From Oscillospiraceae bacterium (GTDB lineage Bacteria > Bacillota > Clostridia > Oscillospirales > CAG-272): DNA of 64,000 bases. The stretch is taken from NCBI GenBank assembly GCA_015063725.1, contig SVTP01000001.1:38410-102409 (forward strand), read 5' to 3'. The notes beneath the pieces were generated by a model. The model did not search any database. It was not told where the DNA came from and worked only from the letters and a program-made list of their open reading frames with translations. Each line of letters starts with the position of its first letter. Position 1 is the first letter of the stretch. A program made the translations under genes and the position numbers. Shown here in pieces: positions 9,657 to 43,537 of the stretch.

Positions 9657-11030
9657 ATGCTCAAAAAATTTTTAGTATTTGTTTTGCTTGCGGCAATGCT
9701 CGCGCTCTCATCCTGTCAGGTGGTTGAGGTTATTGACCACGGAACAACACCGCCACCTGCTGAGACTACCGCTCCACCAAAGGAATATGAGCCTTGGGGA
9801 CTTTGGCATTCTTATTTGACCTCGGGAGCGCTTGAGTTGAAGAAGGATAGCAACAAGGCAACACTATATTACCTCCAAACGGGATATTATGCATACACCA
9901 AAACCATAGAGGTAGACTGCGCGTATGACGGTAATGCCACATTTACCCTCTCGTTTGAAGGCGAGACGGTAACCTTTACCTTTGATAAGTTTGCAAACAC
10001 CCTGAAAACCTCGAATGCAACCTATCTGCATCAGGACAAAGCTCCCACCAAGCATCCCGTATATACCTATCCCGATTACACAAAATGGAATCCGTCCTCT
10101 TATTTGACTCTTGAGGATATTGATTTTACTGCAATCAATACGCTATTTTATGAAGGCGCGCCTTATGAGATCGCCTCGGCGGTTTATGGAAACGTTAAAA
10201 ACTTCCCCCTTTTGGAGAACCCCACCCGTCCTGCAAAAAACGGTGACGTTGTCAATATCGATTATTGCGGCAAATTGAACGGTGTCGCTTTTGAAGGCGG
10301 AACTGCCACGGGCGTACAGCTTTTTGTGTCTGATTATTTCGATACCGGATACATTCCCGGATTTACCAAGGGTATTGCAGGTCACGTAGTGGGTGATACT
10401 TTTGATGTGCCCGTCACTTTCCCTGAGAATTACCACGCAGCTGACCTTGCCGGCAAAGAGGTGGTATTTACCATGACACTCAATGGCATTGGTAATCTTG
10501 TTTTAACCGATGAGCAAGTACAGGAATACAAGGAGAACGACTATACTACCTATGCACAATGGCTGGAAGCTGAAAAGGAAGTCTACGTAAAGCATTTATT
10601 CCAGGAGTCCCTTATAAAAGCTACCAAAACTGTTTCTCCTCTGCCCGAAGAATCCTACCTGTATTTCTATCAAGAAATCCTTGATTATTATCACATGGTA
10701 GCGTATTACAATTCTATCGACTATGAAACACTCGCGTTTTATTACGGATTGAGTGAGACTGTGGTTATGAATGAAGCGGTAAAGCAAACGACTTATAATC
10801 TTGCTCTTTACGCTCTAATGGCAGAAAACGGTCTTGCTTGGAGCGAAGAAGACTTCAATGCAAAATATGATGCTTTGGTAGCTAAGTATTTAGAGGAACA
10901 AAAGAACGCCACCGAGGAAGATGCACGAAAATATGCAGACGGTTTTATTATGCAACTCAAGCATGAATTAACCGAGGAAACTGTCATTGCATGGGCAACG
11001 GAGCAAAGCTTCCCCACCACAACTGAATAA
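9657..11030 (+). CDS. lipoprotein with trigger-factor-like FKBP PPIase and C-terminal domains (exported TF paralogue)
   Basis: Signal peptide with lipobox [26 protein letters not shown]...[39 protein letters not shown] aligns closely with the tig product in this window. Own promoter and terminator. Confidence 0.8.
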   Translation: [457 protein letters not shown]

Positions 11031-11036
11031 AAAACG

Positions 11037-11076
11037 GACGGAAATTTTTGCATTTGTGAAAATTTCCGTCTTTTTT
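11037..11076 (+). terminator. terminator of the TF-like lipoprotein gene
   Basis: GACGGAAATT-N14-AATTTCCGTC followed by TTTTTT. Confidence 0.75.
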
Positions 11077-11110
11077 AGAAAATCTTATCTTTTTTTGCGA
11101 TAAACAACAG

Positions 11111-11139
11111 TTGACAAACGAGTAAAAATGTTGTATAAT
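11111..11139 (+). promoter_or_regulatory. ssrA promoter: TTGACA-17-TATAAT
   Basis: Perfect consensus hexamers at 11111-11116 and 11134-11139, ~18 nt upstream of the mature tmRNA 5' end. Confidence 0.75.
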
Positions 11140-11156
11140 AATTGGGCACACCGTAT

Positions 11157-11548
11157 GGGGGTGCAATGGTTTCGACGGGGACTTTGAAACACGATAAGCG
11201 TGGCGAGCCGGGTAATCTCGTAAACTGCCTAAACTTTTAAAAATAAACGACAACAATTCTGTTGCTATGGCTGCCTAATCTTTACGCATTAGCGTAAAGA
11301 TGGCAGTGCCGTGACCTGCGGGTCACCCGTTCCTCCGATGAGTACCACGGCTTCGGACTGAGCGTCATTTGAGTGGTGCACGTGCATCGGTCTTTCGCAC
11401 TTGAACCGATCATGCATAAAAGGGCTACCGGAAGGCAGAGCGTGTCTGTTCGCGCCGCCCGACGGGAATTTTAAATAACAGACTGTCCACGAAGAAAGTT
11501 GTGTGGATGGGTTTTCGGACAGGAGTTCGATTCTCCTCACTTCCACCA
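11157..11548 (+). ncRNA. ssrA: tmRNA (transfer-messenger RNA)
   Basis: 5' GGGGGUGCAAUGGUUUCGACGGGG pairs with 3' ...GGACAGGAGUUCGAUUCUCCUCACUUCCACCA to give an acceptor stem with G3:U and an encoded CCA. Internal tag frame ends ...AAC GAC AAC AAU UCU GUU GCU AUG GCU GCC UAA (..NDNNSVAMAA*). Consensus promoter upstream and a 20-bp hairpin downstream. Confidence 0.95.
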
Positions 11549-35698: not shown

Positions 35699-37600
35699 TC
35701 AGGACAAAATATCAGAGACTATGGCATCAGCATCCAGCCCAAAGCTCTTCCAAATAGGCTCGTTCCGTGTTTGAATGGCAAAATGCTCGCCCAGTGCCTT
35801 GATTGTGACGGTCTTATTTTGCATGACCTCATAATTTGCAAGAGCTGCCGAGAGCATCATACCCATGCCGCCTGCGCGGATCTCTTCCTCGAGGAACAGC
35901 ACGCGAGAGGATTGCTTTGGCAAAAGACTTGCCACCTCCCCGGCGATCTTTTCGTAAGGCTTGATCTGCTCCAGAAGCAAAATACCAACCTGTTTTCCCT
36001 GCTCTTTGAGCATGGTCTTTGCTTTGAGAGCTTCGGTTGTGATGCGTCCGTGCGTGACGATGACGGCATCAAGTCTCTCTGCCTCGCTCGCGGTATAGTC
36101 AGCGCGCACGCGCCCCGAAACGGTAGCCGCCACTGAATAAAATGCGTTTTTGATGTCCGCATTTTCGTATCCGTTGGGATAACGGATGGCAGTGGGAGTA
36201 TTTGATGCCAAGGCTTCCTCCAAGACGGAGTGGAGCGCTTGGTTGGTAATGGGAGAATAGATGCTGATATTGGGGATTTCGGAAAGGAATGCAACGTCAA
36301 AGATGCCGTGATGCGTGGGACCGTCGGCGGCATTGAGACCTGCACGGTCAATGCAGAACACGACGGGCAGGTTTTGCAGAGCGACATCGTGCACAATATT
36401 ATCGTAGGCGCGTTGCAAAAAGCTGGAGTAGATGGCAACCACGGGGCGGCATCCGTTTGCGGCAAGTCCTGCGGCAAAGGTGACAGCGTGGGGCTCGGCA
36501 ATACCAACGTCAAAAAAGCGTGTGGGATGCTCTGCTTGGAATGCGGAAAGCCCCGTTCCCGAGGTCATTGCGGCAGTAATGGCACAAATACGACCGTCCT
36601 TTTTTGCAAGCTTGGTCAGGTGTGCGCCCATCTCCTCGGAGAAATTGTGTCCGTCAGGATGCGTTGCTCCGGCAGGATGCAGGGCGTGGTAGCGATCGGA
36701 GTGCTCCTCGGCAGGGGCGTAGCCCTTCCCTTTTTTTGTGTGCAGATGGATCAGGCAGCTCTGTCCGCTGGCTTTGGCTTCTGTGAGCAGCTGCTCAACG
36801 GCGCGCTCGTCGTTGCCGTCAACAGGACCGAGATAGTAGAGCCCGAGGTTTTCAAAGGTGTTACTTCCATATAGCATGTCCTTGACGGCGATCTTTGCGC
36901 GCAAGAGACCGCGGAAGATGGGTTTGCCGATCAGCGGAATTTTTTGCAGGAAGTTTGCCGTTGCACGTTTGGTTTTGAAATATCCCTTTGCCGAGCGCAG
37001 CTTGGAAAGAGAAAGTGCCAAGCGCCCGATGTTTTGGGAGATCGACATCTCGTTTTCATTGAGAATAATGACAAGGCGCAGATCCTTGCGGCAGTTATTG
37101 AGTGCCTCGTGGATCATACCGCCCGTAAAAGCACCGTCGCCAAACACGCAAACGGTATACGCATCCGAGCCGCTGAGACGGTCTGCCTCGGCAAAACCGA
37201 GGGCGGCAGAAAGAGAGGTGGAGCTATGCCCTGTTCCAAAAGCATCGTGCTCGCTCTCGCTGCGTTTGGGAAAACCGCTGATGCCGCCGCCATGTCGCAG
37301 AGTGTCAAACACCTCGCGGCGCCCTGTGATCAGCTTGTGCGTGTAGCTTTGGTGACCGACATCAAAGATGATATGATCGTGGGGAGAAGAAAAGACGCGG
37401 TGAATGGCAAGTGTCATTTCAACTGCTCCAAGATTGGATGCGAGGTGTCCGCCGTTTTCTTCTACGCGCTCGATGATGGATGCGCGAATTTCGTCAGCCA
37501 ACGCGGATAACTCCTCGGCAGGCATATTTTTGAGGTCATCGGGGGTGTTGATGCACGCAAGATGCGGATAGCGACCGTTTTGTGCGATTTCGTTTGCCAT
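35699..37600 (-). CDS. dxs: 1-deoxy-D-xylulose-5-phosphate synthase
   Basis: 633 aa with GGHLASNLGAVE, FDVGHQSYTHK, GDGAFTGGM (TPP motif) and DRAGLNAADGPTHHG. Confidence 0.96.
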   Translation of the reverse strand: MANEIAQNGRYPHLACINTPDDLKNMPAEELSALADEIRASIIERVEENGGHLASNLGAVEMTLAIHRVFSSPHDHIIFDVGHQSYTHKLITGRREVFDTLRHGGGISGFPKRSESEHDAFGTGHSSTSLSAALGFAEADRLSGSDAYTVCVFGDGAFTGGMIHEALNNCRKDLRLVIILNENEMSISQNIGRLALSLSKLRSAKGYFKTKRATANFLQKIPLIGKPIFRGLLRAKIAVKDMLYGSNTFENLGLYYLGPVDGNDERAVEQLLTEAKASGQSCLIHLHTKKGKGYAPAEEHSDRYHALHPAGATHPDGHNFSEEMGAHLTKLAKKDGRICAITAAMTSGTGLSAFQAEHPTRFFDVGIAEPHAVTFAAGLAANGCRPVVAIYSSFLQRAYDNIVHDVALQNLPVVFCIDRAGLNAADGPTHHGIFDVAFLSEIPNISIYSPITNQALHSVLEEALASNTPTAIRYPNGYENADIKNAFYSVAATVSGRVRADYTASEAERLDAVIVTHGRITTEALKAKTMLKEQGKQVGILLLEQIKPYEKIAGEVASLLPKQSSRVLFLEEEIRAGGMGMMLSAALANYEVMQNKTVTIKALGEHFAIQTRNEPIWKSFGLDADAIVSDILS

Positions 37601-37650
37601 TGTGCGTCTCCTTTCTGCCCTGTTGGGCGATTTTTATGACATACCATAAT

Positions 37651-37679
37651 AGTATACCACGAAAAAGCAGAAATGTCAA
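37651..37679 (-). promoter_or_regulatory. dxs promoter: TTGACA-17-TATACT
   Basis: Minus strand: TTGACA (37679..37674) and TATACT (37656..37651). Confidence 0.6.
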
Positions 37680-37720
37680 TATTTTTGAAGATTGGAAAAT
37701 GATTTTTGAAAAAACAATTC

Positions 37721-37748
37721 AAAAAAGGATGCCGCAAAAGCGGCATCC
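37721..37748 (-). terminator. terminator of lipoprotein gene 37761..39143
   Basis: GGATGCCGC-AAAA-GCGGCATCC, followed on the minus strand by TTTTTT. Confidence 0.75.
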
Positions 37749-37760
37749 AAAAAGTGTTTC

Positions 37761-39143
37761 TTAGTAGTACATATTGGTATTGGGCGGTAAGGATTTGTAT
37801 TCTTCGGTGTTTCTTATAAAATCTACGATTTTGTAGTATGCGTAGCCGAATTCTTGATGAACTTCCCAGTCTGTATAAAAGTATGCAAGAACTTCCCCGT
37901 CGATTGTAAAATCAACCGTTTCCCCGTTGATCGTGTAACTGATTTCAATATCATAGTAAGGTTGTACGAGAACATTACCAACAACAAAATCTTCTTTGAT
38001 TTCTGTAAAGTTCGCATTATAGAACAATCGATAGATATCCATCAGCTCTTCGCGCGTCAAAACTAAAGTCGTTTCACACTTTGCACCCAATTTGTAATTG
38101 TAACCGTTTTCCAAATGCCCTGTTTTTGAATCGTATGCACCGTCAAATCCCCAGGTCAAGGAGAATGCGAAATCGTCGGGCAATTCAGCTGTTTTTGTTT
38201 CACCACAAATGTAGCAAGTGTAAAGTATAACTTCATTTTGGTCTACTTGTGTAACAACACCGTCATCGTAGCTGTGCGCAATAACGCAGTTGTGATGGTC
38301 TTGGTTCAGTTCAGCAAGAGTATCAAGTGTAATAATGCCTCTATCGAATGCTTCGTTCAAAGTAAGGAGTTTGCCTTGGTAGTATATGAGAATTTCTCTT
38401 TCGTTTGCATAAGTAAAGGTATATGGCGTACCCCATATCTTATCGCTCCAAATAAAATCGTCACCCTCCGCAAGCATAAAGGCATAGACATCATAGGTGT
38501 TGGAACCGGCGGTGTGCTGATATTTGCCGTAAATTTTTCCAATTTCAGGGGGTACTGCCCAATCGTTTTCTGCCATTACAGTAGTGGCTAAGATAGCACT
38601 TTCTGAAACATCCGGCAAAAAGTAGATAACTTCTCGCGTCCAAGCCAAGCTATCCCACAAGTTTGCAGTTGATGCCTTATCATCGAACACCAAAGCGTTT
38701 TCCAATATGGTAAACACATGGGATTTTTCAGGATTTTCAATAGCAAGAATAACCTGACCATCCTTGACTCGGTAAAAATTGCAGTACGGCTCCTCCGCAT
38801 CATCCGGATACTTCGCTTCAAAACGTCCGTTTTCGTAAAAAGTCAAAGAAATGGGCTCTGAACGGAGCGAATAAGGAAGATAATACGTGCCCATAGTTAA
38901 GCCGTTAATAACTTTTGGGGGCGTAACTTCGGGCGGTGTTTCCGGGGTTGTAACATCCTCCGTTGTGGTTTCTGCTGCTGTGCCCTCCGGCGTTGTCTCC
39001 TCTGGGGTCGTGCTCTCGGGCGTTGTTACATTCGGAGTAGTGGCATTGGGAGTTGTTCCCTCGGTTTGATTGCCTTGCAAACAACCCGAAAGAGCCGTCA
39101 AAAGTAGGGATGCGAGCAAAAGAACTGAAAATAGTCTTTGCAT
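37761..39143 (-). CDS. lipoprotein of unknown function with TTPxx-repeat linker
   Basis: 460 aa. Lipobox LTALSG-C and five TTPxx pentapeptide repeats. AAGGAGG RBS and terminator at 37721-37748. Preceded by a long structured leader. Confidence 0.75.
   Translation of the reverse strand: MQRLFSVLLLASLLLTALSGCLQGNQTEGTTPNATTPNVTTPESTTPEETTPEGTAAETTTEDVTTPETPPEVTPPKVINGLTMGTYYLPYSLRSEPISLTFYENGRFEAKYPDDAEEPYCNFYRVKDGQVILAIENPEKSHVFTILENALVFDDKASTANLWDSLAWTREVIYFLPDVSESAILATTVMAENDWAVPPEIGKIYGKYQHTAGSNTYDVYAFMLAEGDDFIWSDKIWGTPYTFTYANEREILIYYQGKLLTLNEAFDRGIITLDTLAELNQDHHNCVIAHSYDDGVVTQVDQNEVILYTCYICGETKTAELPDDFAFSLTWGFDGAYDSKTGHLENGYNYKLGAKCETTLVLTREELMDIYRLFYNANFTEIKEDFVVGNVLVQPYYDIEISYTINGETVDFTIDGEVLAYFYTDWEVHQEFGYAYYKIVDFIRNTEEYKSLPPNTNMYY
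38982..39056 (-). repeat. five 15-nt repeats encoding TTPNA-TTPNV-TTPES-TTPEE-TTPEG
   Basis: Read directly from the translation of 37761..39143, residues 30-54. It forms the linker after the lipobox. Confidence 0.85.
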
Positions 39144-39167
39144 AGTTTACCTCCTTAAAATTTGTGT

Positions 39168-39217
39168 AAAAAACAAAAAAGCGCAAAGATAGCCGTTATC
39201 AGCTCTACTCTTGCGCT
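39168..39217 (-). terminator. intrinsic terminator inside the 5' leader of lipoprotein gene 37761..39143 (attenuator-type)
   Basis: Minus strand: AGCGCAAGA-N19-TCTTTGCGCT (9 bp, one bulge) followed by TTTTTGTTTTTT. It ends 11 nt before the AAGGAGG RBS. Confidence 0.55.
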
Positions 39218-39339
39218 CTTATTTGACGATTTTTGTTGCCATCCGCAAAGTTGTTGGTGGCAAGCAAACACGTTTTGCACAGAGCAGAACTGTTTGAAAT
39301 CGTGTGATTTTTGATGTCACCTCAATATTTTACATTTTT

Positions 39340-39368
39340 ATTTTAGCATATTTTCTTTTGCCTGTCAA
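39340..39368 (-). promoter_or_regulatory. promoter driving the long leader of lipoprotein gene 37761..39143: TTGACA-17-TAAAAT with TATGc extended -10
   Basis: Minus strand: TTGACA (39368..39363), 17-nt spacer, TAAAAT (39345..39340). The start codon lies ~190 nt downstream. Confidence 0.6.
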
Positions 39369-39509
39369 GTGTTTTTTTGATCGAAAGGAAAAAAATGGTA
39401 AATTATTTTTCTTTTCCTTTCAAATTCCGACAAATTACGCAGGGCAAAAGTTCTATAATAATACAAAAAGGACAGCTATGCGCTCTCCGAAAAGAAAGGA
39501 CTGATCAAT

Positions 39510-40052
39510 TTGCTTTGCGAAAAATGCAAAAAAAGGACGGCTACCGTCTTTTACAATGAAAATCTCAACGGAAAGGTGCGATCCTACTCCCTTTGCGGCG
39601 AATGTGCCGCAAAATTGCACGAAAAGGGGGATATTGGAGATATTACCTCGATGCTTGGCAGCTTTGCCGATCCCTTTTGCGATCTACACGAAAACCTCTT
39701 TGGCGGCTTTTTTGGCATGGGTCCGCATACTGCCGTCAGCGGCAAAAAATGCCCCGACTGTTCCTCTACCTTTGCGCGCATCCGTGGGAGCGGTCGCGTA
39801 GGTTGCCCCACCTGCTATCGCGTCTTTGCCGAAGAGCTCGCACCAACGCTCCATACCGTTCACGGAACCACCACACATACGGGAGCAGTTCCTGCCCGTC
39901 ATCGCGCAAGACGTGCCAAGGCAGAGCGGCTCAAGCTGCTCAAGCGGCAAATGCAAGAGGCGATTGCAAAGGAAGATTTTGAGGTTGCCGCAACGCTTCG
40001 TGACGAGATCAAAAGCCTTGAAGACAACAAAAGAAAGGAGAGTGAAGCATAA
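39510..40052 (+). CDS. mcsA: protein arginine kinase activator McsA (UvrB/UvrC-motif, zinc-ribbon protein)
   Basis: 180 aa. Two CxxC pairs at the N-terminus, further CPDC/CPTC, and a C-terminal UVR motif (EDFEVAATLRDEIKSL). TTG start. Adjacent to mcsB. Confidence 0.88.
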   Translation: MLCEKCKKRTATVFYNENLNGKVRSYSLCGECAAKLHEKGDIGDITSMLGSFADPFCDLHENLFGGFFGMGPHTAVSGKKCPDCSSTFARIRGSGRVGCPTCYRVFAEELAPTLHTVHGTTTHTGAVPARHRARRAKAERLKLLKRQMQEAIAKEDFEVAATLRDEIKSLEDNKRKESEA

Positions 40053-41065
40053 TGGCTTGGTATAACACAACAGGACCTCTATCCGATACGGTCATCAGCT
40101 CGCGTGTGCGGCTTGCAAGAAACATAAACGGCTACCCCTTCCCCTCCCGTTTGGATGCCAATAACGCAAATGAGATCATTGAAAAGGTCTCTGCACCTTT
40201 GGAGAATGCAGGATTTCGGCGCATCAATTTTTCGGATATTTCCCCTATTATGGCAACGTCTTACGTAGAACGCCACTACGTCAGCCCCGAATTTGCCACC
40301 ATGGAAACACCGCACTCACTCCTTTTGCAAGAGGCAAACGGCTGCGCCGTAATGCTTTGCGAGGAGGATCATTTGCGCATACAGGCTATTCTTTCGGGAC
40401 TTTCTTTAGAAGAAGCTTACAAAAACGCCTCGGAGATTGAAAAACGTCTGGATGCCGATTTTGATTTTGCTTACAGTGACACGCTTGGCTATCTTACCCA
40501 CTGCCCCACCAACCTTGGCACGGGGATGCGTGCATCGGTAATGATGTTTCTGCCCGCACTCTCACGCGGCGGCTATATCGCATCTCTTGCCGCACAGCTT
40601 GCAAAGCTCGGTCTTGCCATACGCGGTCTGTTTGGCGAAGGCAGCGGCAGTGCGGGATGTATGTATCAGATATCCAATCAGATCACGCTCGGCGTGACGG
40701 AAAATGAGATCCTCTCAAAGCTGACCGAGGCGGTCAGACAGATCAGCGAGAGTGAAATGCAAGCGCGCAAGAACATTCAAGAGGACGCACTTGAAGCTTT
40801 GACGGATAAGGTTGGGCGATGTGTGGGCATACTAAAGCATGCTTATATGATTGGCACTGAGGAGTTCATCAGGCTCTTTTGTGAGGTACGGCTCGGCATC
40901 TCCAAAGGTCTTGTTTCGGGCATTACCTACGAGCAATTGGGCACACTTTTGGTAGAGGCGATGCCTGCCACCCTGACACTTTCCTCGGAGACAACTCCCA
41001 AGGGAGAAGTAGCACGCGACAAGCTCCGCGCCGCACGCATCAAGGCGGTCCTTGATGCCTCATAA
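40052..41065 (+). CDS. mcsB: protein arginine kinase McsB (ATP:guanido phosphotransferase)
   Basis: 337 aa with SSRVRLARNINGYPFP, CPTNLGTGMRASVM and a GEG...IS.Q.TLG-type region. Start overlaps the mcsA stop (TAATG). Confidence 0.93.
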   Translation: MAWYNTTGPLSDTVISSRVRLARNINGYPFPSRLDANNANEIIEKVSAPLENAGFRRINFSDISPIMATSYVERHYVSPEFATMETPHSLLLQEANGCAVMLCEEDHLRIQAILSGLSLEEAYKNASEIEKRLDADFDFAYSDTLGYLTHCPTNLGTGMRASVMMFLPALSRGGYIASLAAQLAKLGLAIRGLFGEGSGSAGCMYQISNQITLGVTENEILSKLTEAVRQISESEMQARKNIQEDALEALTDKVGRCVGILKHAYMIGTEEFIRLFCEVRLGISKGLVSGITYEQLGTLLVEAMPATLTLSSETTPKGEVARDKLRAARIKAVLDAS

Positions 41066-41086
41066 CACGCAGAGAAAGGATAGCAA

Positions 41087-43537
41087 ATGAAGAACAGATT
41101 TACGCAAAAAGCACAGAATGCGCTCAACTTTTCACTCGGGAGTGCATCGGACATGGGACACACCTACATTGGCTCGGAGCATCTTTTGCTCGGTCTTTGC
41201 CGTGAGGAAAGCGGTGTTGCCGCACACTACCTGCAAAGCCGAGGGGTTGATGCCGAAAAGGTGAAGAGTGCCATCATCCGTTTGGCAGGTGCGGGCGTCC
41301 CTTGCGAGGTTTCGGCAACCGATATGACACCGCGCACCAAAAGCATTATTCAGGCATCCTTTGCCGAGGCACAAAAGTGCGGTCAGGAATTGATCGGCAC
41401 CGAGCATTTGCTCCTATCCATCTTGCGCGAGCAGGATTCTGTGGCTGTGCGTATTTTGGAGAGCTTTCATATCTCTGTCAGCGATCTTTCAAGTGATCTT
41501 GCCGCTTATATCGGTGCTTCCCCCACTCTTGAGGGAGCAATTCCTATCAAAAATAAGACAGCAGAACGAAAAAGAGACAGTGTTCTCTCCTCTACTCAGG
41601 CACTCAAAAGCTATGCCCGAGATCTTTGCGAGCTTGCTGCGACGGGTAAGATTGATCCCGTGATCGGGCGCGATGGGGAGACAGAGCGGCTCATTCAAAT
41701 TCTTTCAAGACGGCAAAAGAACAATCCGTGCCTGATTGGCGAGCCGGGCGTTGGCAAAACCGCGGTCGTTGAAGGTCTTGCCACGCGGATTATAAGGGGG
41801 GATGTTCCCGAAAATCTGCTTGATAAAGCCGTGGTAACGCTTGACATCGCCTCTATGATCGCAGGTGCAAAATACCGCGGCGAGTTTGAAGAACGCTTTA
41901 AAAACGTGATGGAAGAGGTGCGCAAAAACCCGAATATCATTCTCTTTATTGATGAAATCCACACCATCATCGGTGCGGGAGCCGCCGAGGGAGCGGTGGA
42001 TGCCGCCAACATCATCAAGCCTGCCCTGGCACGCGGTGAATTGCAGGTGATCGGCGCAACCACTACCCCCGAATACCGTCGCCACATTGAAAAGGATGCG
42101 GCACTTGAGCGACGTTTTCAAGCTGTAACCGTAGGTGAACCCTCACGCGAGGATGCTTTGGCGATCCTTTTGGGGTTGCGTGAACGGTATGAGACGCATC
42201 ACAAGCTCAAAATTTCAGACGAGGCGCTTCGAGCTGCGGTGGAGCTTTCCGTCCGTTATATTGCCGATCGCTATTTGCCCGATAAAGCCATTGATCTGAT
42301 TGACGAGGCAGCATCGCGTCTGCGGATCCGCGCACACACCTCCCCCGACGGCATCAAAGCCAAGGAAGAAGAGCTTAAAGCGGTCTCACGAGAGAAAGAA
42401 ACGGCGATCCTTTCGCAAGAATTTGAAAGTGCCGCCGCTTTGCGCGATAAGGAGCAAGCCTTGAAAAAGGAGATCGAGGAAGAAAAACAGGAGTGGCGTT
42501 CTGCGCAAGAATCCAAAGAACTCTCTGTCAGTGAAGCGGACATTGCCGAGGTCGTTACACAATGGACAGGCATCCCCGTGCACAATCTTTTGAGTGAGGA
42601 AGAAGAACGTCTGCTCCACCTGGAAGAACATTTGAAGGCGCGCGTAATCGGTCAGTCGGATGCGATCGGTGCAGTTGCAAAAGCGATTCGACGCGGTCGC
42701 ATTGGGCTCAAGGATCCACGCCGTCCCATAGGTTCCTTCATTTTTATGGGACCGACGGGCATTGGCAAAACCGAGCTCGCTCGCGCGCTTGCCTTTGTGA
42801 TATTTGGGAGTGAGAGTGCGATGATCCGCCTTGATATGTCGGAATATATGGAAAAGCACAGTGTTTCCAAGCTCATCGGCTCCCCTCCCGGCTACGTCGG
42901 CTTTGATGAGGGCGGACAGCTGACCGAAAAGATACGCCGCAAGCCCTATTCGGTGCTTCTGTTTGACGAGATCGAAAAAGCGCATCCCGACGTATTCAAC
43001 ATCCTTTTGCAGGTGCTTGAGGACGGACATTTGACCGACTCGCAAGGGCGGCAGGTAGATTTTAAAAACACCGTCATCATCTTGACCTCAAACGTCGGTG
43101 CATCGGATCTTTCTGCTACAAAAACGCTTGGATTTGTCTCCGACTCTGCCGAGAGCGAGAAGAGCGAACGCCGCGAGAAAATGATGCGTGCATTGCGGTC
43201 GACATTCCGCCCCGAGTTTCTCAATCGAGTGGATGAGGTGGTTGTTTTTAACAGTCTTTCAAAAGAAGATATCACCTCTATCGCGCGCCTGATGCTGGAA
43301 GATGTGGTGGAGCGTTGCAGGGATATTGGCATTTCCCTTTCCTTCTCCCCGGCGGTTGCGGAGCTGCTTGCCGCCAAGGGATTTGATGAGAGCTGGGGCG
43401 CACGCCCCTTGCGCAGAACGGTGATGCGTCTTGTGGAAGACAGACTTTCCACCGATCTTTTAGAGGGGAAATTCGCCAAAGGTGACAGCGTTTTGGCAGA
43501 CGTAACCGATAATGAGATCGTGTTTGAGAAGAAGTAG
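41087..43537 (+). CDS. clpC: ATP-dependent Clp protease ATP-binding subunit ClpC
   Basis: 816 aa. Clp_N repeats ([14 protein letters not shown] / [10 protein letters not shown]), two Walker A motifs ([16 protein letters not shown]), a UVR-like middle domain, and an LGF ClpP loop. Confidence 0.95.

Follow-up and report, generated by a model that had tools for sequence, protein, structure and literature searches.

The untranslated leader of a gene for a 460-residue lipoprotein probably acts as a lineage-specific, cis-acting transcription attenuator of that monocistronic gene, and may also release a short RNA. Within the window, meaning the whole stretch of 64,000 nucleotides that was analysed, an intrinsic terminator is located between the promoter and the start codon of the lipoprotein gene with no gene in between, and an alternative helix that excludes this terminator is stronger than expected by chance (Table 1). 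An earlier reading of the DNA from its letters, referred to here as the sequence-only reading, had described this architecture as a promoter followed by a long leader with a mutually exclusive terminator and antiterminator, a description now backed by statistics and by conservation among relatives. The helices, their energies, their competition and their conservation were all computed, and a trans-acting factor that would set the choice between the two outcomes is postulated.

Table 1. Features of the lipoprotein gene, its leader and the flanking genes, in coordinates of the window
Feature	Position	Strand	Description
Sigma-70-type promoter	39340..39368	minus	-35 TTGACA 39368..39363; 17-nt spacer; extended -10 TGc 39348..39346; -10 TAAAAT 39345..39340
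Predicted transcription start	near G39333	minus	
Leader 5' segment	39297..39333	minus	first ~15 nt variable; conserved blocks GGUGAC and AAAAUCAC
Small hairpin AAAUC-ACAC-GAUUU	39310..39297	minus	within the leader 5' segment
Hairpin P1, candidate anti-antiterminator	39265..39296	minus	CAAACAGUU, 13-nt loop, AAC(G)UGUUUG
Antiterminator 5' strand (strand A)	39277..39292	minus	CAGUUCUGCUCUGUGC; overlaps the 5' stem and loop of P1
Part of strand A	39292..39284	minus	CAGUUCUGC
Hairpin P2	39236..39263	minus	UUGCCACC, 11-nt loop, GG(A)UGGCAA
A-rich linker	39218..39235	minus	variable; 4-nt indel between variants
Intrinsic terminator	39168..39217	minus	38-nt imperfect hairpin 39217..39180; U6GU6 tract 39179..39168
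Terminator 5' arm (strand C)	39216..39200	minus	GCGCAAGAGUAGAGCUG; partner of strand A
Terminator 3' arm	39195..39180	minus	
Spacer and RBS	39144..39167	minus	AAGGAGG at 39156..39150, before the ATG at 39143
Lipoprotein gene	37761..39143	minus	460 aa; signal peptide with LSGC lipobox, Thr/Pro/Glu-rich linker, Cys-containing globular part
Lipoprotein gene 3' terminator	37727..37748	minus	
dxs promoter	37679..37651	minus	follows the lipoprotein gene terminator
mcsA start (TTG)	39510	plus (divergent)	heads the mcsA-mcsB-clpC operon

A check of the sequence found all of the minus-strand features of the sequence-only reading in place. Among them is the promoter, which had been read as TTGACA-17-TAAAAT with a TGc extended -10 element and which matches at 11 of 12 positions in addition to the TG; it is the top promoter-like site in a scan of the 3 kb at 37500..40500. 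Genome and assembly look-ups returned the leader in seven distinct variants, always at this locus and all carried by related uncultured Eubacteriales MAGs (the window, L014, L001, L026, L020/21, L008 and L011/12/13). The promoter is kept in all seven variants as well as in L016, a lineage without the leader element, and wherever the lipoprotein gene occupies this site the promoter is conserved too. As had been claimed, there is no upstream gene on the minus strand that the terminator could serve, the neighbour being the divergent mcsA-mcsB-clpC operon. No recognisable promoter was found downstream of the terminator, in front of the lipoprotein gene. Within the leader 5' segment, pairing between GUGA and UCAC amounts to -0.4 kcal/mol (z +0.24) and is not significant alone. 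A sigma-54 promoter, a CtsR box and a CsrA GGA site were considered as further elements and dropped, with no match to any of the three by eye. As a separate observation, the 8-mer CAAAAAUC occurs twice on the minus strand of the leader, in the 5' block (39313..39306) and in the pre-terminator linker (39235..39228). Its conservation in L001-type variants is only partial (AAAAUC versus AAAAUG), and the pair could be a protein-binding repeat or the product of chance.

The terminator hairpin (AGCGCAAGA...UCUUUGCGCU) has a predicted energy of -15.1 kcal/mol (z -2.6) and is a stable, G+C-containing hairpin followed directly by a U-tract that ends 11 nt before the RBS, exactly as the sequence-only reading had it. 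The length and imperfections of its stem are the only reason why a simple terminator scanner overlooked it. The hairpin is present in all seven variants with energies of -15 to -18 kcal/mol. A fold of the leader cut off at the U-tract brought out another structure, overlooked in the sequence-only reading, in which strand A pairs with the whole 5' arm of the terminator through 16 bp interrupted by one bulged A. The energy of this antiterminator duplex, calculated with RNAduplex, is -25.4 kcal/mol, and that of the terminator 3' arm as a duplex with the same 5' arm is -15.5 kcal/mol. Across 2000 dinucleotide-preserving shuffles of the upstream sequence the best duplex had a mean energy of -11.9 kcal/mol (sd 2.2, minimum -21.2), and not one shuffle equalled the observed value. 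The antiterminator domain as a whole (39292..39200) folds with -33.4 kcal/mol (z -4.25), with none of 200 shuffles as good. In every one of the seven variants the strand A segment is the best partner of the terminator 5' arm (-16.8 to -25.4 kcal/mol); its distal half falls in the leader's most variable 5-mer, and in L008 the antiterminator helix is weakened to -16.8 kcal/mol.

The antiterminator strand proposed in the sequence-only reading was a different one, the 7-mer CUUUGCG. This 7-mer is indeed present at 39250..39244, within the loop of P2, but its duplex with the terminator 5' arm (-8.1 kcal/mol) is weaker than the mean of the shuffles, and an antiterminator role at this chance level was rejected. 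The real antiterminator candidate is strand A, at 39292..39277, paired with 39216..39200.

Strand A doubles as the 5' stem and loop of hairpin P1 (-9.6 kcal/mol, z -2.8). All nine stem pairs of P1 are kept in all seven variants with a single A-U to G-U change, and the variation is concentrated in the loop. A competing hairpin in the same region, GCAAA-CGUG-UUUGC, had been put forward earlier; although the window sequence can form it, four of the seven relatives have lost its closing pair, whereas the pairing of CAAACAGUU with AAC(G)UGUUUG is kept in seven of seven, and the former is probably replaced by P1. The second hairpin of the earlier description, UUGCCA-N16-UGGCAA, was confirmed at 39263..39236 and is invariant in all relatives. 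It corresponds to P2 (-8.0 kcal/mol, z -2.3), which is nested inside the antiterminator domain and whose stem shows one wobble and one break as the only changes among the seven variants, with a variable loop. Taken together, P1, the strand A helix and the terminator give a three-way layout of anti-antiterminator, antiterminator and terminator, as is usual for kinetic attenuators that include an anti-antiterminator.

Under hard constraints, the whole leader of the window is equally stable in the terminator fold (-42.5 kcal/mol) and in the antiterminator fold (-42.6 kcal/mol). In the relatives the terminator fold ranges from -44 to -48 kcal/mol against -36 to -45 kcal/mol for the antiterminator fold, the two lying within 1-12 kcal/mol of each other. 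Compared with shuffles, the fold of the whole leader is only marginally better (z -1.7). Equilibrium folding of growing transcripts gave P1 and P2 up to 39208, an antiterminator that is favoured once the transcript reaches 39200 (-37.0 versus -24.1 kcal/mol), and the terminator only once its 3' arm is complete at 39180 (-39.6 kcal/mol).

On the basis of these folding calculations the following sequence of events is proposed. Transcription would start near 39333 at the near-consensus promoter, and P1 and P2 would fold first. The 5' arm of the terminator would then emerge with two possible partners. Pairing with strand A would open P1 and create the 16-bp antiterminator, allowing the polymerase to read into the gene, while a 5' arm that waits for its 3' arm would form the terminator and a ~165-nt RNA would be released at the U-tract. 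The choice would be made in the interval of ~20 nt that separates the making of one arm from that of the other, depending on what stabilises P1 and strand A or opens them. Equilibrium folding suggests that the antiterminator prevails as long as the 3' arm is unfinished, and on this basis an effector would most plausibly promote termination by keeping P1 closed. The balance leans towards an RNA-binding protein or other macromolecule as the effector and away from a small metabolite, since the leader shows no complex conserved aptamer core and the element is confined to one locus in one clade.

The mcsA-lipoprotein intergenic regions of L001 and L008, for which pairwise comparisons were run, are ~83-84% identical to that of the window. 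When the columns of the leader were classified by the fold of the window sequence alone, 19-23% of paired columns varied compared to 42-49% of unpaired columns (Fisher p 0.0017 and 0.0005). In the same sequences four-fold degenerate sites vary at 46% in the lipoprotein gene and 62% in mcsA, and by this comparison the unpaired positions of the leader look about neutral and the stems constrained. Within the terminator, the 5' arm is nearly invariant among the seven variants and changes are found in the inner 3' arm and the loop; the 5' arm must pair with two partners and is hence constrained. Covariation, which the sequence-only reading had proposed as a check, gave no statistically meaningful signal. 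The covariation term of RNAalifold was +1.13, and 143 of 500 shuffles matched the covariation score observed in a separate test; in both named structures 93-98% of cells pair, yet no measure exceeds the shuffles. The sole compensatory change is a C-G to U-A replacement in the antiterminator of L011. The analysis lacks power because the divergence is shallow and the seven variants are too close (at least 83% identity), and the conservation of the helices could largely reflect shared ancestry.

An attenuator or insulator that operates constitutively, with folding kinetics setting a fixed and lower expression of the lipoprotein and no signal involved, would fit the near equality of the two folds. 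It would also account for the lack of an aptamer-like conserved core and of covariation, and for a narrow distribution in which the L016 lineage does without the element. This alternative is nevertheless doubtful, since three interlocking conserved helices, with stems that vary about half as often as neutral sites, would be an over-elaborate means to an effect that a weaker promoter would equally give.

A search of the whole window against Rfam 15 at gathering thresholds returned only a tmRNA on the plus strand (11157..11548; RF00023, 151 bits) and an overlapping permuted-tmRNA match (10972..11278), the weaker of the two and probably a side effect of the same tmRNA gene. No family reached threshold for the leader, which agrees with the earlier statement that it resembles no known class. 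In a permissive scan of 39050..39560 the best match was MIR1520 (22.8 bits, gathering score 53), all E-values were at least 0.19, and neither PyrR nor Trp-leader families were matched. The T-box family RF00230 gave no match even at E <= 10, and comparison by eye with the consensus motifs of RAT/LicT, ANTAR, TRAP and PyrR found none of them. The only cis-regulatory family among the sub-threshold matches was the trpB ncRNA motif RF04312 (21.1 bits versus a gathering score of 59, E = 1.6). The A-rich linker UCAAAUAAGA and the terminator after it align to the 3' half of this model, but the 5' hairpin of the model is unmatched and the downstream gene is not trpB; membership was rejected as a chance-level resemblance driven by the terminator.

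It is quite unlikely that P1, P2 and the conserved 5' blocks constitute the sensor of an undescribed riboswitch or RNA-sensor class that switches the lipoprotein by means of a ligand. The suggestion of an unclassified riboregulator in the sequence-only reading holds for the attenuator layout but not for a metabolite-aptamer riboswitch, given the lack of covariation, the single locus in one narrow clade, and the absence of the element both from L016, a sister lineage with the same promoter and gene, and upstream of distant orthologues. No covariation-backed aptamer recurring across taxa or genes was found in the seven close variants of this locus, a sample of low power. The conserved blocks and stems described above are what a sensor of this kind would be built from, and the class, if real, would so far be confined to one clade of uncultured gut Eubacteriales.

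The leader has no conserved open reading frame among the seven variants, consistent with the earlier claim that it holds no plausible one. There is no frame that starts behind a Shine-Dalgarno sequence and stays open in every variant, and indels of 1 nt and 4 nt shift the frames. A 41-aa ORF in the leader (39280..39155) is without a Shine-Dalgarno sequence, and the 4-nt indel breaks its frame in relatives. Ribosome-mediated attenuation through a leader peptide, which would call for a conserved short ORF with a Shine-Dalgarno sequence over the alternative helices, is highly improbable. In several variants frames do stay open across the leader as far as a UAA directly ahead of the terminator, and the codon at 39280 is GTG, TTG or ATG in six of the seven. 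Against this, none of the candidate starts has a Shine-Dalgarno sequence ahead of it, the putative start reads CGG in L014, the long frame meets a stop at its second codon in the window and in L014 and L011, with a second stop in L011, and the frames differ between variants through the same indels. An antisense ORF of 50 aa on the plus strand (39162..39314) was also rejected, with its frame not conserved and no Shine-Dalgarno sequence.

The distribution of the element among relatives is narrow. L016 has the gene order and the promoter of the window (TTGACA-17-TATTCT in a TATGC context), its 5' UTR is just ~45 nt long, and a ~150-nt element that includes the terminator is absent. Because the promoter of L016 drives the gene through this ~45-nt UTR, the ~150-nt element can be regarded as an added regulatory module. 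The close relatives L017-19, L022-25 and L027 have no lipoprotein gene, and dxs is directly divergent from mcsA. Upstream of the distant orthologues (L002-L010, L028, L029) the leader element is absent, and these genes either have a promoter of their own and a short UTR or belong to operons. Conservation upstream of orthologues, which the sequence-only reading had singled out as informative, therefore extends to the seven close variants but not to L016 or the distant orthologues. Searches of the window and of 217 kb of related DNA with blastn-short and a covariance model of the 5' domain (R1) detected no second copy of the element, BLAST gave no match in plasmids or phages, and a metagenome scan with GCAAAACGTGTTTGNTTGCCAC gave 0 matches. 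A three-block pattern of antiterminator and terminator, which matches all known variants among the loci collected, gave 0 matches in viral contigs and 0 in JGI metagenomes; the latter result is weak, as the JGI contig L026, an exact match, was not returned.

The element has its own promoter and terminator, which are necessary, and not sufficient, for a small RNA. Both are strong and delimit a discrete ~165-nt RNA with conserved hairpins, its stems are under constraint, and the short products of terminating riboswitches or attenuators are able to act in trans, so that both roles can coexist. Riboswitch-derived trans-acting RNAs exist, for example SreA and SreB of Listeria, and by analogy the ~165-nt terminated fragment of the leader would accumulate and could act in trans. 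That the leader is solely an independent small RNA acting in trans, with the lipoprotein expressed only through incidental read-through, is unlikely, because the 16-bp antiterminator makes sense only if read-through matters; an internal helix of this length that destroys its own terminator is hard to explain for a pure small RNA. Furthermore, the lipoprotein gene has no other recognisable promoter, with only 11 nt between the U-tract and the RBS, the same promoter is that of the gene in L016, and the element was never found away from the lipoprotein gene.

Three-helix attenuators and riboswitch platforms of the Firmicutes include the trp/TRAP and pyr/PyrR leaders of B. subtilis and the SAM, purine and T-box platforms. 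Like these, the present leader runs untranslated from a promoter to an intrinsic terminator close in front of the RBS, its antiterminator shares a strand with the terminator, and an upstream hairpin shares a strand with the antiterminator. It differs in that no sensor is recognisable: it has no T-box sequence, (G/U)AG triplet array or PyrR loop. The strand that serves as anti-antiterminator is located downstream of the antiterminator strand, in a local hairpin, rather than upstream, and the leader element comes from one locus in one clade only.

According to Naville and Gautheret (2010, PMC2965389), who catalogued orphan and 'mobile' attenuators through an analysis of premature terminators, unannotated and fast-evolving attenuators are numerous and are sometimes acquired through mobile DNA, with terminators of insertion sequences and prophages becoming 5' regulators in a 'mobile attenuator' scenario. 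The lipoprotein leader resembles those attenuators as an unannotated, fast-evolving 5' terminator between promoter and gene that is present or absent between close lineages. Unlike the attenuators of that screen, for which recurrence across gene families or species was a requirement, the leader element does not recur, and unlike the mobile attenuators presented there, it shows no connection with insertion sequences or prophages. A non-functional relic of an insertion that carried a terminator along, such as the tolerated or exapted 3' end of a mobile element or former gene, is improbable as an explanation. A relic would suit the lineage-specific insertion of the entire lipoprotein cassette between mcsA and dxs, the presence of the ~150-nt element in one sister lineage and its absence from another, and the conversion of insertion-sequence and prophage terminators into 5' regulators that has been described (PMC2965389). 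A relic would not be expected to show significant antiterminator complementarity or constraint specific to stems. Plasmid, phage and viral collections contain nothing similar to the element, the 217 kb of related DNA hold no second copy, and no coding remnant is conserved. On the question of insertion or deletion, the similarity of the L016 UTR to the terminator 3' arm was not significant (p 0.43).

If confirmed, the attenuator would be one more orphan among many unannotated 5' regulators of Firmicutes, and would illustrate how closely related gut bacteria can acquire or lose a ~150-nt regulatory module while the promoter and RBS on either side stay fixed. Conditional expression of this hypervariable, mosaic surface lipoprotein could then bear on envelope biology and on phage or host interaction in uncultured Clostridia. 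Without an effector the general importance of the attenuator is limited, and it opens no long-standing question.

The lipoprotein gene is a monocistronic cassette because it has both its own promoter and its own 3' terminator. Its product has no Pfam domain, and its 63 homologues all come from uncultured Clostridia/Eubacteriales assemblies. The Thr/Pro/Glu-rich linker is disordered, and the AlphaFold model of the globular part is confident (pLDDT 83, pTM 0.76). A comparison to the PDB returned no match at E <= 0.001, and one sub-domain resembles the Mago fold with a TM-score of about 0.5 relative to the target. With no domain or fold match, the lipoprotein therefore gives no clue to a ligand. 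The protein is fast-evolving, hypervariable and mosaic when compared with L014, L001, L008, L016 and L022-L027. In L014 the intergenic region and the 5' end of mcsA are nearly identical to the window, with just 72% DNA identity in the lipoprotein gene; the L001 lipoprotein carries an insertion of ~270 aa, and the ORF of L008 is cut to 233 aa.

The gene was also observed to be a lineage-specific cassette between mcsA and dxs that is absent from several close relatives. In L029 (502..2668) a distant orthologue with 50% identity belongs to an operon of overlapping genes, in which it follows an ECF-type sigma factor (Sigma70_r2/r4_2) and a protein of 83 aa, a possible anti-sigma factor; this arrangement hints at an envelope-stress connection of the lipoprotein family.

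Hairpins were also noted at the neighbouring genes. The mcsA-mcsB-clpC operon has no ctsR in front of it (window 39144..41087), and neither a CtsR heptad repeat nor a CIRCE element was recognised in the mcsA-lipoprotein intergenic region. The only good TATAAT of the mcsA promoter is ~20-21 nt from the nearest TTGACA-like hexamer, an unusual spacing. A stem-loop in the mcsA 5' UTR (39469..39489, plus strand) is positioned directly after the predicted mcsA transcription start, between the TATAAT at 39455..39460 and the RBS GAAAGGA, and is also found in L001, L008, L011, L014, L016, L017, L020, L022, L024 and L027. Its stem carries compensatory substitutions (GGACA...UGUCC, GGGCUC...GAGCCC, GGGC...GCCC and GGACAGCC...GGCUCUCC) between flanks, AAUACAAAAAGG and AAAAGAAAGGA, that are invariant among relatives. 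At the 5' end of the mcsA-mcsB-clpC mRNA this hairpin probably has a stabilising or regulatory role; read on the opposite strand, it has a U-run after it. A small hairpin of the dxs 5' UTR, just before the RBS (37617..37640, minus strand), has the sequence GCCC-AACA-GGGC in the window and shows pairing-preserving variation in L017, L022, L024 and L027, for example GCCC-UUGU-GGGC and UGCC-AUGA-UGGC(A). Hairpins adjacent to the RBS within 5' UTRs seem to be common in this clade.
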